DNA of 4,809 nucleotides from a virus. Lineage: Duplodnaviria; Heunggongvirae; Uroviricota; Caudoviricetes. The position numbers were made by a program, and so were the translations under genes. This document shows positions 1-4,639 of this stretch, piece after piece. The stretch lies in the IMG/VR virus record IMGVR_UViG_2660238600_000005; one strand, given 5' to 3'. Under the pieces are notes generated by a model. It had not been told where the DNA came from. It searched no databases and saw only the letters and a list, made by a program, of their open reading frames with translations. How positions within the stretch are numbered: position 1 is the first letter of the stretch; every line of letters begins with the position of its first letter.

Positions 1-711
1 TTACGCCTTCTTTATATCCTCCATAATTCCAGAGTGGGACATATTTGGGACATTATCACCAAAAATGTCGTCTATTTTCCTCGCATGCTCTGTCAAATGA
101 TTAGGCGCAAGGTGAGCATACCTACGAACCATTTCTATGGACTCCCATCCGCCCATTTCCTGAAGCACTGATAATGGGACGCCTGACTGAATCAGCCAGC
201 TTGCCCAGGTGTGTCTGAGGTCATGGAAACGGAAATCTTCAATTCCTGCACGACGACAAGCTGATAGCCATGATGTCTTGCTGTCGATGCGCATCTTCCT
301 GACTGCAGGCGTTGATGTTCCATCTGCTCGCTTAGCCGCCTTGGTATGTACAAACACCCATTTGTGATGCTTGCCTATTTGATCACGCAACACTTTACAG
401 GCGGTATCGTTCAGCGCCACACCAATGGCGCGGTTTGATTTGCTCTCTTCTGGATTCACCCAGGCAACTCGTCGCTGCATGTCGATTTGTTGCCATTCCA
501 GATTTATGATGTTCGACTTTCTCAGACCAGTTGCCAGCGCAAACTTGACGACAGATTTCAGTGGTTCGGGGCACTCATCAATAAGGCGTTTTGCTTCCTC
601 CTTTTCCAGCCATCTGACTCGCTTGTTTCTGACCGCTGGTATCTTGATGACAGGCGCTTTTTCCAGCCACTTCCAGTCGCGTTCTGCAGCACGGAGAATG
701 GCCTTTATCAT
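1..711 (-). CDS. int: Tyrosine recombinase / phage integrase, catalytic domain only; N-terminal arm-binding and core-binding domains absent, so possibly a truncated remnant
   Basis: 236-aa ORF with ATG at 711-709 and TAA at 3-1. Tyrosine-recombinase active-site pattern is present: Arg in [12 protein letters not shown]-x-x-R in [15 protein letters not shown], and the Tyr in VRRYAHL. Reading the same frame upstream of the Met gives only 24 codons before a stop at 786-784, and no integrase-like N-terminus is seen in another minus frame. Confidence 0.85.
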
Positions 712-778
712 GGCAAGATGCTTTGCCTTTGTCTGAGTTGATACCGCCGGGCTGCCAAACGTCAGCGAGCTGGTTGAT

Positions 779-1096
779 ATGGTTTACGAGTATTGCCGGA
801 AGCGTGGTCTGTATCCGGATGCAGAGTCTTATCCGTGGAAATCAAACGCGCACTACTGGCTGGTTACCAACCTGTATCAGAACATGCGGGCCAATGCGTT
901 GACTGACGCGGAATTACGGCGCAAGGCTGCCGATGAACTGTCCTGTATGACCGCGCGAATTAACCGTGGTGAGGCGATACCTGAACCAGTAAAACAACTT
1001 CCTGTCATGGGCGGTAGACCTCTAAATCGTGCACAGGCTCTGGCGAAGATCGCAGAAATCAAAGCTAAGTTCGGACTGAAAGGAGCAAGTGTATGA
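779..1096 (+). CDS. Hypothetical phage protein, 105 aa; possibly the 3' remnant of a larger gene
   Basis: ORF from ATG 779 to TGA 1094-1096. No convincing Shine-Dalgarno upstream. The frame stays open back to a stop at 734-736 with no alternative start codon. Its stop overlaps the next gene's start (ATGA at 1093-1096). No family recognised. Confidence 0.45.
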
Positions 1097-1386
1097 CGGG
1101 CAAAGAGGCAATTATTCATTACCTGGGGATGTATAAGAGCTTCTGTGCGCCGGACGTTGCTGCGGTAACAGGCGCAACAGTAACCAGCATAAATCAGGCT
1201 GCGGCTAAAATGGCGCGGGCAGGAATCTTAGTCATTGATGGTAAGGTCTGGCGAACGGTGTATTACCGGTTCGCTACCAGGGAAGAACGGGAAGGGAAGG
1301 TGGGCACGAACCTGATTTTTAAGGAGTGTCGCCAGAGTGCCGCGATGAAGCGGGTGTTGGCGGTATATGGGAGGACTACAGCATAA
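1093..1386 (+). CDS. Hypothetical protein, 97 aa; possible helix-turn-helix / winged-helix DNA-binding protein
   Basis: ATG 1093 is preceded by AGGAG (1081-1085) at 7-nt spacing and overlaps the upstream stop (ATGA). The segment PDVAAVTGATVTSINQAAAKMARAGILVIDGKVW looks like an HTH followed by a beta wing, by eye only. Confidence 0.55.
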   Translation: MTGKEAIIHYLGMYKSFCAPDVAAVTGATVTSINQAAAKMARAGILVIDGKVWRTVYYRFATREEREGKVGTNLIFKECRQSAAMKRVLAVYGRTTA

Positions 1387-1724
1387 GCATAACTTATGGA
1401 TTATATGGAAAACTGGTAATTATGCTCTTTTCTTATGAAAATAAAGAGAAGTTTTCGCTGGCGTTTTATTTCTTCTGTTTTTTCTTGCGGGTTATTCTGA
1501 TTTGTTTTGATTTGATTTTTTCTGACAAAAGTAGGGAAAAAATATGTCGCAAGTACTTTCTGTCTTTACCTCCTAAATTACATTCTCTATCAAATGTTGC
1601 CATAGTTATGACCCCAGTTTTATATAGTGTTTCAGCAATTTTTCTGTAGTTTTTTTCTCGCAAAATTGAAGAGTTTTTCTTTGCTGTATTTTCAAGGCTA
1701 TCTCCTTGTGGTTTAAGACTATTT

Positions 1725-1778
1725 GGGCCAAAAAACGTTGTGGATACTGCTGCACTTGTTGTCCGTTTTTTTTGGCCC
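1725..1778. repeat. Imperfect ~54-bp palindrome (GGGCC-A6-CG / CG-T8-GGCCC arms around a 26-nt loop) in the AT-rich spacer between convergent gene blocks; candidate bidirectional terminator or protein-binding site
   Basis: Left arm GGGCCAAAAAACG (1725-1737) is complementary to right arm CGTTTTTTTTGGCCC (1764-1778) with two extra T. It lies 86 bp beyond the stop of the leftward Mnt-like gene and downstream of the rightward genes ending at 1386. Confidence 0.55.
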
Positions 1779-1863
1779 ATTTGGATAGTACTTGGGAGAG
1801 GCATGATTTTAATACGCATATAAATAACTCCTCTATCAATTGGATTTTGAGAAAATATTAACA

Positions 1864-2181
1864 TTAATCATGATTAAGGAGTAATTTTAAATCTTCCAAT
1901 AAAATTTGTTTAAACTCTTGTGTTCTATGATCGATATACAACGCAAGTTTGCTTGCATTATCTTCCAGGTCACGTATCTCTCTGTCACCTCGAATAAACC
2001 CAACTAAATTTAAACGTTTAGATAGTTCAGAACTTCCTTCTATGGCATCTTGGAGTATTTGAATGATTTCTGAATTCATTGAGCGCCCGTTTCGTTTGGC
2101 TCGTTCAGCTATAGTTTCACGCATCCCATCAGGGAAACGGAGGTTAAACTTATCGTAGTCTTTTACTTGTTTGTCAGCCAT
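1864..2181 (-). CDS. Mnt/Arc-family ribbon-helix-helix transcriptional repressor, 105 aa, with a C-terminal extension that could be a coiled-coil oligomerisation region
   Basis: N-terminus MADKQVKDYDKFNLRFPDGMRETIAERAKRNGRSMNSEIIQILQDAI matches the Arc/Mnt signature as I recall it (FNLRxP ... NGRSxNSE ... Q). Start chosen at ATG 2181-2179, preceded by a G-run; the track ORF extends to 2211 but the extra 10 residues have no ribosome-binding site and do not fit the family N-terminus. Stop TAA at 1866-1864. Confidence 0.8.
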   Translation of the reverse strand: MADKQVKDYDKFNLRFPDGMRETIAERAKRNGRSMNSEIIQILQDAIEGSSELSKRLNLVGFIRGDREIRDLEDNASKLALYIDHRTQEFKQILLEDLKLLLNHD

Positions 2182-2280: not shown

Positions 2281-2439
2281 ATGGAAAAGAAAGAGGTAAA
2301 AATTACCCTTCGCTATCCGCAAAAAGTGAAGGATGAATTCAAGCGAATTGCTCAGGAGGAAGGGATGTCTGAGAACGCAGCTATTGTTCAGGCGCTTGTA
2401 TGGGCATTGAAATTTAGAACACGGATACATGCTCGCTAG
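2281..2439 (+). CDS. Small ribbon-helix-helix (Arc/CopG-like) DNA-binding protein, 52 aa
   Basis: MEKKEVKITLRYPQKVKDEFKRIAQEEGMSENAAIVQALVWAL fits a beta-strand / helix / helix RHH pattern. Start ATG 2281 has GAGG (2269-2272) at 8-nt spacing. The 5' extension of the track ORF (from 2167) translates the operator region and is not accepted. Confidence 0.6.
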   Translation: MEKKEVKITLRYPQKVKDEFKRIAQEEGMSENAAIVQALVWALKFRTRIHAR

Positions 2440-2446
2440 AAACAGC

Positions 2447-2478
2447 GAAGCCCCACTGGCGGCAACCTTAGGGGCTTC
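2447..2478 (-). terminator. Hairpin in the arc-like/ant-like intergenic region; possible terminator of a leftward antisense RNA, by analogy with P22 sar
   Basis: GAAGCCCC (2447-2454) pairs with GGGGCTTC (2471-2478) around a 16-nt loop. On the minus strand the stem is followed by GCTGTTTCT (T-rich); on the plus strand there is no T-run. Confidence 0.3.
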
Positions 2479-2509
2479 TATCGAAAATAACCGCGAAGGA
2501 AATATCGAC

Positions 2510-3178
2510 ATGAGTATTGTAGCAACATCAGATCTGAACTTCCAAGGTGAAGCACTAGTGCCAGTGGCAAATATTGCCGGAATATGGCTAACTTCATCCA
2601 ACCTAGCAAGAGCACTGAAGTATTCGAATAGTCGCGCAGTCACGATGATTTACAACAAATATGCTGACGAATTTTCCAGTAGTATGACTAGAGTGCTTGA
2701 AGTCAGTACCTTAGAGAATGATGTCGAGGTACTTGATCTGAGTACCTCGAAAAGTACTCGAAACTTGAAGAAGAAAGTACGCGTTTTCTCTCTCCGCGGA
2801 GCCCATTTGATCGCCATGTTCGCCCGCACTCCTGTAGCCAAAGAGTTCCGCCGTTGGGTTCTGGATATTCTCGATCGAGAAGTTCAACAATCCCCAATCA
2901 TAAAACAATTCACTGATAACGAACTTTGCACACTTGCTTGGTTGTGGCGAGCTGGGGATGCGATGTTAACCGCCTGCCAGAACGTTACTCCTCTTCTTCA
3001 GGTTGCGGAGCATCGTGAAGCTGGTCGCTTCACTTCTATCGAGCAAGAATATCCCCAGATACTCAATAAGGCACAGGCAATCCTTGCCAGAGAAACGGCA
3101 CATGTAAAATTCCGGCCGTGGCAGGATGATAAGTGGAGTCGAGTTTTGCCGCATTTACGTTCGGATCGATTACAGTAG
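2510..3178 (+). CDS. Bro-N domain protein, antirepressor-like (Ant/Roi-type), 222 aa
   Basis: N-terminal region (FQGEALVPVANIAGIWLTSSNLARALKYSNSRAVTMIYNKYADEF ... VFSLRGAHLIAMFARTPVAKEFRRWVLDIL) matches the Bro-N pattern as I recall it, including the ...AK.FRRWV... motif. Start ATG 2510 has GAAGGA at about 9-nt spacing. The track ORF start at 2429 overlaps the upstream gene and lacks a ribosome-binding site. Stop TAG at 3176-3178. The C-terminal ~95 aa are unassigned. Confidence 0.8.
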   Translation: MSIVATSDLNFQGEALVPVANIAGIWLTSSNLARALKYSNSRAVTMIYNKYADEFSSSMTRVLEVSTLENDVEVLDLSTSKSTRNLKKKVRVFSLRGAHLIAMFARTPVAKEFRRWVLDILDREVQQSPIIKQFTDNELCTLAWLWRAGDAMLTACQNVTPLLQVAEHREAGRFTSIEQEYPQILNKAQAILARETAHVKFRPWQDDKWSRVLPHLRSDRLQ

Positions 3179-3241
3179 ATTCCAATTAACAATGAGAAAC
3201 ACATAGCCACCCCGTGGTATTGAAACCATATAATGTTGGAT

Positions 3242-3270
3242 TTGAAAACAGATCTTTTTCCATGTATTAA
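3242..3270 (+). promoter_or_regulatory. Candidate sigma70 promoter facing the 118-aa gene and nin region
   Basis: -35 TTGAAA (3242-3247), 17-nt spacer, -10 TATTAA (3265-3270) with TG immediately upstream. The spacer contains an imperfect palindrome centred on AGATCT. Confidence 0.3.
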
Positions 3271-3438
3271 TAACTACATCCCCGCGAGTGATTCAAAAAG
3301 GAGGGCCCAATTTTGTCCGAGTTTTTGTATTCCCCCGCATGCCGCTGCGGAGCACTACATCTGAGTGTCTGACTAGGGGATAAAATTAGACTGGATAGTG
3401 AGAAGAAAGTGGCGTGCTAGGCTGTGCCGAGTGCTACC

Positions 3439-3562
3439 AGTACACCCTGGGGGTGTGCAGCTTTCGCCGAGACTGTAGTGGGTATCGGTTAATGCACGAA
3501 AAACCGAGAGGTCAGACAACCAATTTGCCGTAGGATTGTTTCCGGTGCGATACCGGTGTACT
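3439..3562 (+). other. Nested long-range complementarity in an ORF-free region; candidate structured RNA/leader or DNA site of unknown function
   Basis: AGTACACC (3439-3446) is complementary to GGTGTACT (3555-3562), and GGTATCG (3481-3487) to CGATACC (3548-3554). The two 3' partners are contiguous, giving a 15-bp interrupted helix enclosing internal segments. No ORF of 60 aa or more on either strand between 3211 and 3639. Confidence 0.25.
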
Positions 3563-3639
3563 AACTGAAAGCAATGCGAAAAAGCATAAACTCGGTCCTT
3601 CAGTCGCCCTACACACTATTTACTAAGAAGGGCTAAAGC

Positions 3640-3996
3640 ATGGATACAATTATCACATGGATGGGAGATCGTCTGTTGGGGTGGATAACAAACAAATCCG
3701 ATCTGCGGCAGAGGGCAATCACTGGATTAACTCCTGCGATTTGTTCAACAATTTTATATACTGAAAAATTAAAACGTGGTGAGCCTAATAACCCAAACGA
3801 AGAAGAAAAACTTTATAGGCTTTGGTATGAAGCGTCTTCCCAAGTCGTAGACTTTGATCGAGAGCTGGCTAAAAGATGTTTAGATAAATCAGAATATTGG
3901 CTTCATTCTGAATTATATAGCCCTGAGAAAGTTGAAGAGCTAAACATTTCTTTGGTTGGTATGAAGGCAACGCTTGAAGGAATAAAGCACAATTAA
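3640..3996 (+). CDS. Hypothetical protein, 118 aa; orphan accessory (moron-like) gene
   Basis: ATG 3640 has GAAGG (3628-3632) at 7-nt spacing. The ORF is visibly more AT-rich than its flanks. No recognisable motif. Confidence 0.6.
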   Translation: MDTIITWMGDRLLGWITNKSDLRQRAITGLTPAICSTILYTEKLKRGEPNNPNEEEKLYRLWYEASSQVVDFDRELAKRCLDKSEYWLHSELYSPEKVEELNISLVGMKATLEGIKHN

Positions 3997-4085
3997 AACC
4001 TTTGATTTGCGATAATCAACTCGCCATAATCATGTCATCGGAGCCTGAACAACTCCGGTGACTTCTGCGCTAAACGGGGACGTTT

Positions 4086-4187
4086 ATGCGCACACACAAT
4101 CCAAACTCTCTTCTCCCTCCACAGATGCAGAAATGCACCTGCGATATATTGTATCCAGCGTTTCACCTCTACGGAGGTGAAGCGTGA
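4086..4187 (+). CDS. 33-aa micro-ORF coupled to the NinB-family gene; possibly equivalent to ylcH, the small ORF that precedes ybcN in DLP12-type prophages
   Basis: ATG 4086 has GGGGA at 5-nt spacing. Peptide [33 protein letters not shown]. Its TGA (4185-4187) overlaps the GTG start of the next gene (GTGA). The ylcH assignment rests on length and position from memory, not on a sequence match. Confidence 0.4.
4161..4182 (+). promoter_or_regulatory. Hairpin sequestering the NinB-family gene's Shine-Dalgarno; likely translational-coupling element
   Basis: CACCTC (4164-4169) pairs with GAGGTG (4174-4179) around loop TACG, extendable by T-A pairs to 8-9 bp. GGAGG at 4173-4177 lies in the 3' arm, and GTG 4184 follows. 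Confidence 0.35.
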
Positions 4188-4639
4188 ACCTACCACAAGA
4201 TGGCATCAAACTGCATCGCGGTAACTTCATCGCTATCGGCCAGCAGATCCAGCCTTATCTGGAGAACGGAAAATGCTTTCGCATGGTGCTTAAACCGTGG
4301 CGTGAGAAACGCAGTCTTTCCCAGAATGCACTCAGCCACATGTGGTACAGCGAAATCAGTGAATACCTCATCAGCAGGGGTAAAACGTTCGCTACTGCAG
4401 CATGGGTAAAAGATGCTCTCAAACACACATACCTCGGTTATGAAAGCAAAGAACTGGTTGATGTCGTAACCGGTGAAATCACTACTATCCAGTCGTTACG
4501 CCATACCTCCGATCTTGATGCCGGAGAGATGTATGTCTTCCTCTGTAAGGTTGAAGCCTGGGCGATGAATATTGGCTGCCACCTGACTATTCCGCAGAGC
4601 TGCGAGTTCCAGCAGCTCCGCGACAAGCAGGAGGCGTAA
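4184..4639 (+). CDS. ninB: NinB/YbcN-family phage recombination protein, 151 aa
   Basis: GTG start at 4184 with GGAGG upstream. Contains the ...[24 protein letters not shown]... segment with the S-x-x-Q-N motif I associate with the NinB family; length and position immediately before ninE match DLP12 ybcN. Stop TAA at 4637-4639. Confidence 0.88.

Follow-up and report, generated by a model that had tools for sequence, protein, structure and literature searches.

A structured RNA and the small gene ORF118 as a candidate accessory cassette between the ant and nin genes of a lambdoid prophage

Lambdoid morons are accessory genes inserted between conserved phage modules, as bor and lom are in lambda. 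What occupies such a position, and what it might do there, is the question raised by a 4,809-nucleotide (nt) stretch of Caudoviricetes DNA (IMG/VR virus record IMGVR_UViG_2660238600_000005; this whole stretch is called the window below). A first-pass annotation, made from the letters of the sequence, had pointed to an orphan gene of 118 amino acids (aa) on the plus strand at 3640-3996, in a moron-like position between an anti-immunity module and the nin genes, with a structured region upstream. The intact open reading frame (ORF), called ORF118 here, is present as described and its position is borne out, with Arc and Ant genes and a sar-like match on its 5' side and orf33, ybcN and ninE on its 3' side. 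Our preferred reading, to which we give about an even chance, is that positions 3242-3996 form a two-part accessory cassette made of an autonomous RNA gene and a co-transcribed conflict cargo gene, ORF118. Of the two, the RNA is the more striking, ORF118 alone being moderately interesting.

The ORF118 gene and its family

ORF118 is a real gene under purifying selection. Across six divergent copies the ratio of nonsynonymous to synonymous substitution rates (dN/dS) is 0.06-0.30 with saturated synonymous divergence, and homologs of exactly 118 aa are found at 50-97% identity in Escherichia, Enterobacter, Obesumbacterium and metagenomes. The window is 100% identical to a region of the Escherichia coli 99COLEC chromosome beside tRNA-Arg and intD, in which the gene is annotated as hypothetical protein WP_021550624.1. 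The hidden Markov model (HMM) of PHROG 12412 matches ORF118 over its full length (residues 1-118 on profile positions 1-118, E 3.1e-69). This match, the carrier genomes and the remote clusters described below show that the gene is not the orphan it had been taken for.

Of 5426 complete E. coli genomes, 158 (~3%) have a match of any kind to ORF118, and 96 of these carriers have the full-length gene. The rest (~40%, about 60 genomes) carry a truncated allele that is cut after nucleotide 193, with a deletion of ~137 nt and a product of 60-66 aa. It is present in L005, L009, L011, L015 and related loci (compared loci are denoted by L and a number), and its 66-aa form corresponds to PHROG 8527. Searching 50,697 phage records with tblastn gave ORF118 matches in three only; the cultured phages Turner and IdasGreatGrand carry the cassette at 98.6-98.9% identity. 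In E. coli, ORF118 invariably comes with the C-terminal part of ant, and Turner keeps only that fragment of ant.

The first-pass annotation was also right about the distinct composition of the gene. The guanine plus cytosine (GC) content of ORF118 is 0.381, and 0.32 at third codon positions (GC3), against 0.51 for the upstream RNA region, 0.47 for ant and 0.50 for ybcN, the GC3 of the last being 0.59. By this measure ORF118 appears to be a horizontally acquired, compositionally foreign, AT-rich cargo gene. Its ribosome-binding site, described earlier as good, can be read in the window as AAGAAGGG ahead of the ATG, but it is specific to the lineage, since homologs of 69-79% identity do not keep the motif. 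No terminator was found between the end of ORF118 at 3996 and orf33; the hairpin at 4034-4062 has no U tract.

The protein is acidic (isoelectric point 5.4), and its predicted structure is an up-down helical bundle with high confidence (predicted local distance difference test 92.8, predicted template modelling score 0.81). Searches with this model returned generic bundles only. Significant matches were absent from Pfam, NCBIfam, PADLOC and the PDB sequences, the last searched with both the single sequence and a profile, in agreement with the earlier remark that no motif could be recognized. Two functional readings suggested by such a fold were considered. The HEPN toxin reading had only weak Foldseek matches (E 0.4-1.5) and no invariant His or Rx4-6H motif, and the HPt or CheA P1 phosphotransfer reading lacked the conserved phospho-accepting His; both were dropped, as ORF118 does not have the residues that define them. 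ORF118 is predicted to be a soluble helical bundle without a catalytic signature.

Starting from a profile of close homologs, a search of 1.84 billion representative proteins yielded 349 remote clusters (formed at 50% identity) with E<=1e-3. The motif A..AL..A..ET..Y ... E..L..LW..A ... D..LA.RC..K..YW runs through alignments of 39 and 75 members, in which the residues T37, Y40, E55, W62, C80 and W87 of ORF118 are invariant. Among the 148 best clusters, 119 are of <=150 aa and 18 of >=200 aa. In long members the domain lies N-terminal to TIR (Pfam TIR_2, E 3.8e-18, and several PADLOC TIR models), in others it is fused to Hydrolase_4, and further long members have C-terminal stretches that are plainly hydrophobic and membrane-spanning by sequence. 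An alpha/beta-hydrolase fusion of the domain is found on a Rhizobium plasmid. When 55 relatives were compared with Pfam and PADLOC, only the fused domains were matched and never the ORF118 domain itself; apart from these, the remote-homology searches gave uncharacterised relatives and no characterised family. ORF118 is a stand-alone copy of an uncharacterised domain that is found elsewhere as an N-terminal module. The nearest named families are PHROG 12412, PHROG 8527 for the truncated form and the distant PHROG 28881 (E 1e-6), all with function unassigned; no entry in Pfam, NCBIfam or PADLOC covers the wider family of 349 clusters, which includes the fusions to TIR, membrane and hydrolase modules.

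A survey of the gene neighbourhoods of homologs found the family conserved well beyond this locus, mostly in mobile elements, once beside a TIR gene and also among ordinary genes. One relative sits in an island with HigB, an M78 peptidase, a P4 cII-like gene and transposases (L108), another in an integrative element with integrase, HNH, methylase, TraG and RepA genes, and a third adjoins a tRNA. In prophage L111 a relative lies between a theta-subunit-like gene and the excisionase and integrase genes, and in a Klebsiella phage (L145) between the lysis genes and terminase. On a metagenomic contig (L109, 4496-6438) a 495-aa gene combining TIR_2 and ORF6C is followed 18 nt later by a 145-aa relative of ORF118. 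The ORF6C domain is also found in anti-repressor-type proteins. On the whole the ORF118 domain is small, belongs to the accessory genes of mobile elements and is repeatedly associated with effector-type modules. From this association, a part in recognition or as an adaptor within conflict systems may be suspected. As separate observations, the L109 pair could be a two-gene system, and in L108 a second 127-aa ORF of equal length lies 2 kb downstream of the remote homolog (6001-6384 and 8401-8784).

Single-protein immune proteins with TIR or membrane effectors carry N-terminal sensor or regulatory modules in abortive-infection architectures. The ORF118 domain resembles these modules in standing N-terminal to TIR, hydrophobic or hydrolase modules or beside a TIR gene. 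It differs from the immune proteins in that ORF118 has no effector part and most family members stand alone. By PADLOC, no described defence family contains the domain.

The RNA upstream of ORF118

Comparative evidence indicates that positions 3278-3609 encode a conserved structured RNA with a long-range pseudoknot that is outside Rfam 15. RNA copies were collected by pattern scans of viral and metagenomic contigs and from the contigs of ORF118 homologs, which together gave ~100 loci and 32 distinct full-length copies. By megablast, two Klebsiella phages share window positions 3278-3613 only (~80% identity) and not ORF118. As far as seen, the RNA is confined to temperate phages of Enterobacterales.

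With 31 distinct copies RNAalifold predicted 80 pairs, 13 of them with compensatory changes. In this alignment 98.4% of cells are paired, against 32-50% with slid partners, and the covariation score is 0.206 against 0.045-0.06; none of 500 shuffles reached the observed score. A refined model built on 21 more diverse copies has 86 pairs with 96.6% pairing; 22 pairs have changes on both sides, one of them in the pseudoknot, and again none of 500 shuffles reached this. The architecture is that of a multi-helix RNA with long invariant unpaired stretches, in which the 3' domain is closed by the long-range helix GACUGG/UCAGUC. The pseudoknot joins the 5' domain to the 3' domain (Table 1). All 7 of its positions pair in 21 of 21 sequences, with a double change from C-G to U-A in L141 and L143 and an end position that is U-G or C-G. 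It was these two more divergent copies that brought the long-range pairing to light; they do not maintain the local hairpin that RNAalifold had put in its place, and this hairpin was rejected. The plus strand of the RNA is fixed because many pairs are G-U.

Promoter-like hexamers precede the RNA at a fixed distance from its 5' end and from the conserved AUCCCCGCGAG, while the spacer and the sequence further upstream diverge. The -35 element varies as TTGAAA, TTGAAT, TTGATA or TTGTAT. The -10 element, 17-18 nt past it, reads TGnTTAATA, TGnTAAATA or TGnATTAAT in the E. coli, Enterobacter and Obesumbacterium lineages and AGnTAAATT in the Klebsiella lineage. At the other end, at least six other lineages have a strong GC-rich hairpin with a U tract 6-10 nt past the last RNA helix. 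The sequence of these terminator stems varies and their pairing is kept (fold z -3.7 to -5.5), and a terminator scan also gave a hit at this place. In the lineages with ORF118, the ATG follows the RNA by 30-32 nt, and in the window neither a scan nor folding of 3600-3645 (z -0.33) found a terminator-like hairpin between RNA and gene.

A possible 19-codon micro-ORF, MSEFLYSPACRCGALHLSV, lies within the 5' domain and is preceded by an invariant Shine-Dalgarno-like GGAGG at 3300-3304. In 20 of 21 distinct copies its frame stays open without a change in length, and the sole indel falls in the spacer between GGAGG and start. Third codon positions show no excess of variable sites, some of which co-vary as pairs of the RNA. 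The small ORFs annotated within the RNA in phage Turner are unsupported: one of them starts in non-conserved sequence upstream of the RNA 5' end, and the GTG-initiated frame, at 3288-3383 in the window, is interrupted in L065, L070 and L071, where 2 nt are inserted or lost.

Rfam 15 had no match for the RNA (whole window at E<=1; 3230-3660 at E<=10), and ARAGORN found neither a tRNA nor a tmRNA in the region. PGAP annotates nothing at the RNA site in 159 complete E. coli genomes. A description of the RNA was not found in a literature search, and it may be among the unnamed candidates of large screens. A scan of genome contigs with the 18-mer GAGAGGTCAGACAACCAA gave 10 matches in unrelated phyla whose similarity ends at 18-22 nt, and these were set aside as chance.

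ROOL and GOLLD are large phage-associated structured RNAs of >500 nt whose function is not known (PMC12286853, PMC5737381). The RNA described here is like them in being prophage-borne, large for a bacterial non-coding RNA and multi-helix with long invariant unpaired stretches. It is unlike them in its length of ~335 nt, in having no Rfam match and, as far as seen, in its restriction to Enterobacterales temperate phages.

Separability of the two parts and rival readings

In E. coli, Enterobacter and Obesumbacterium prophages, the RNA adjoins every ORF118 copy of 69-100% identity with no terminator between them. The two parts nevertheless occur apart. The RNA is found without ORF118 in at least six lineages, and neither nhmmer nor a covariance model built on the 5' domain detected the RNA with an ORF118 homolog of 51% identity or with any remote homolog examined. 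It was sought there because the remote homologs have long upstream gaps of 300-700 nt, one of which contains a tRNA; searches of both kinds with the 5' domain found the RNA in the expected loci only. Beside the truncated allele, whose remnant is 92-93% identical to intact ORF118, the adjacent RNA is >=98% identical. As an internal control this shows that the RNA is under selection independent of ORF118, and also that ORF118 is dispensable. The structured region noted in the first-pass annotation therefore appears to be an autonomous, conserved RNA module and not simply a leader of ORF118.

The slot after the RNA and before ninB differs among lambdoid phages. It may hold ORF118, an ORF of 183 aa, 178 aa or 93 aa, or be followed by NinB directly. 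The 183-aa cargo is PHROG 27260 and contains a possible Rx4H motif, RLRHNLLH; the 178-aa cargo has hydrophobic N- and C-termini; the 93-aa cargo is PHROG 23640. None of the three matches Pfam or PADLOC. The 178-aa cargo was tried as a relative of ORF118 and rejected (hhalign probability 0.1). With this variable slot, the foreign composition, relatives in other moron slots (L111, L145) and the links to effectors, the moron-like cargo character proposed for ORF118 is partly borne out; the relatives' links to TIR, membrane and hydrolase modules fit a role in host interaction, exclusion or anti-defence, which we infer from these associations. Like lambdoid morons, ORF118 stands at a module junction, is of foreign composition, is present or absent among close relatives and is dispensable. 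Unlike them it has no detected terminator of its own, and the promoter-proximal 335 nt are an independent pseudoknotted RNA module.

According to the preferred reading, the first part of the cassette would be an RNA gene with a weak sigma-70-type promoter and two domains tied by the pseudoknot. ORF118 would have taken the place of the RNA's own terminator, and since no terminator separates the two it is probably co-transcribed as the 3' part of the transcript. The protein may act by binding a partner, as a non-enzymatic recognition or adaptor protein in phage-host or phage-phage conflict, and would be dispensable for phage growth. The conflict role, suggested by domain associations, could be exclusion, defence or counter-defence. 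A number of observations weigh against this reading. The ORF118 domain itself matches no PADLOC model, effector-like fusions are a minority of relatives, and several stand-alone relatives lie among ordinary metabolic genes. A promoter consensus scan does not flag the RNA promoter in the window or in three other loci, so we infer this promoter from conservation alone, and in an intact phage read-through from PR could also transcribe the RNA and ORF118. The free-energy z-scores of the RNA are unexceptional (-0.56, -0.89), and the case for its structure is therefore made by covariation among related sequences.

The RNA could instead act in cis as a sensory leader, like an attenuator or a riboswitch, and gate the following cargo, here ORF118, a reading we consider possible and on balance doubtful. 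The terminators of the other lineages fit it, since in several of them, the Klebsiella-type lineage included, the structured domain is followed within 6-10 nt by a strong terminator and then by a same-strand ORF. In the window no terminator precedes ORF118. Where ORF118 follows, the RNA leads directly into the ribosome-binding site, and its 3'-terminal GCCCU (3606-3610) could base-pair with AGGGC of that site (3629-3633). The invariant GGAGG and the UUG frame of 19 codons are embedded in the 5' domain as in long micro-ORF leaders. However, the downstream genes are mutually unrelated and one of them is the core gene ninB, which is atypical for a ligand-sensing leader, and 335 nt is large for an aptamer. 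No conserved antiterminator was found, the candidate GUCGCC/GGCGGU failing in L003 and L143, and the RNA stays conserved where ORF118 has decayed. The same decay, with ORF118 truncated and the RNA intact in ~40% of carrier genomes, makes it quite unlikely that the two form an obligate pair such as a ribonucleoprotein or an RNA-controlled module of toxin/antitoxin type. Their adjacency without a terminator at 69-100% identity is what such a pair would predict, but the RNA without ORF118, the distant homologs without the RNA and the acidic protein all speak against it, as does the lack of ToxI-type tandem repeats. In this last respect the locus is unlike type III toxin-antitoxin systems of the ToxIN kind, as no tandem repeats occur in 3100-4200, upstream of and around ORF118.

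It is unlikely, although somewhat less so than an obligate pair, that ORF118 is an ordinary early accessory of lambdoid development, modulating replication, recombination or the anti-repressor, with no part in conflict. Its position in the early-right operon between ren/ant and ninB, its constant link to the C-terminal part of ant in E. coli and in Turner, and the ORF6C-domain protein that precedes the TIR-linked homolog in L109 are all in line with such a role. Against it, most lambdoid phages are without the gene, as the tblastn counts indicate, and the gene is often pseudogenised and foreign in composition, with relatives in unrelated slots and in non-phage elements. Common truncated alleles and the absence of a family annotation could finally be taken to mean that ORF118 is a chance or decaying frame without function. 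This is hardly credible, being contradicted by low dN/dS at saturated synonymous divergence, by motifs invariant across 75 remote relatives and by the confidently predicted fold.

A bolder version of the cassette reading is speculative, and we hold it rather improbable as a whole: the RNA would represent a functional phage RNA class not seen before, which marks an exchangeable slot for conflict genes in temperate phages of Enterobacterales and either controls this slot or partners with it, and ORF118 would be an effector-less copy of an immune sensor or adaptor, serving as decoy or inhibitor or else triggering the exclusion of rival phages. As a decoy it might target host proteins in which the same domain is fused to TIR, membrane or hydrolase effectors. 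The RNA has strong comparative support and is present in the cultured phages Turner and IdasGreatGrand and in ~3% of complete E. coli genomes. Large new RNA classes are rare in well-studied enterobacterial phages, and the function of this one could be regulatory, scaffold or anti-defence. Finding what the ORF118 domain recognises would annotate hundreds of protein clusters and could bring to light a new sensor or the decoy that a phage makes of it. As a cargo hot spot, the stretch from the RNA to ninB may prove useful for mining defence and counter-defence genes.

Prophage context and neighbouring features

The prophage that carries the window is defective, DLP12-like and lambdoid, and occupies the tRNA-Arg/intD site. 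The left part of the window (1-1386) goes from integrase to a fragment of P and ren (Table 1), and the immunity and early-left region is entirely missing. Since the prophage is defective and this region is gone, any expression must come from local promoters.

Between ren and the nin genes lies a module like immI of P22, with an Arc/Mnt-like gene on the minus strand, an Arc gene, an Ant gene and a sar-like antisense match. It resembles the P22 module (mnt, arc, ant and sar RNA) in its Arc-family pair, in an Ant with Bro-N and P22_AR_C domains and in a sar-like match over the ant start. It differs in its location between ren and the nin genes and in the score of the sar match, which at 34 bits is under the RF00262 gathering threshold of 43. 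To our knowledge P22 has no counterpart of the RNA or of ORF118 after ant. In the window a gap of 460 nt separates ant from ORF118.

On the 3' side, ORF118 is followed by orf33 of the phage 82 type, then orf151 (ybcN, NinB-like) and ninE. The right junction of the cassette is immediately 3' of the ORF118 stop codon, and from 3998-4001 on, megablast again aligns the window with phage 82 and numerous further lambdoid phages. The site at 4002-4030 reads TTGATT-17-CATAAT and is flagged by the promoter consensus scan, and the 10-bp inverted repeat that follows it forms a strong hairpin (fold z -4.65). Record X92588 of phage 82 has matching annotations, namely putative -35/-10 signals and a "possible regulator-binding site".

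Table 1. Positions of features in the window, and of alternative cargo in other loci
Feature	Positions	Strand	Remarks
Integrase	1-711	-	Directly abuts P fragment
Replication protein P, C-terminal fragment	779-1096		Matches lambda P profile positions 93-162 of 162
ren	1093-1386		
AT-rich ORF	1466-1864	-	132 aa; GC 0.33; adjoins Mnt-like gene
Ant gene	2429-3178		Bro-N and P22_AR_C domains
sar-like antisense RNA	2444-2508	-	Covers ant start; Rfam RF00262, E 3.8e-4
Putative -35, TTGAAA	3242-3247	+	From conservation only
Putative extended -10, TGtATTAAT	3263-3271	+	Implied transcription start near 3278
Conserved structured RNA, ~335 nt	3278-3609	+	5' domain 3278-3381; 3' domain 3389-3605
Possible micro-ORF	3313-3372	+	UUG start, UGA stop
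Pseudoknot 5' arm, UCUGACU	3368-3374	+	Pairs with 3510-3516
Pseudoknot 3' arm, GGUCAGA	3510-3516	+	Pairs with 3368-3374
ORF118 ribosome-binding site	3625-3632	+	7 nt before ATG; read from sequence
ORF118	3640-3996	+	ATG start, 118 aa, TAA stop
Cassette right boundary	4002-4062	+	Putative -35/-10 at 4002-4030, inverted repeat at 4034-4062, ahead of orf33 and orf151
Alternative cargo (other loci)	L003 5385-5936; L102, L078, L089; L027		L102, L078, L089: downstream of RNA

The AT-rich ORF at 1466-1864 is, beside ORF118, a second gene of foreign composition in the window. It had no matches in Pfam, PHROGs, PADLOC or NCBIfam, and its RefSeq form is shorter, at 117 aa.

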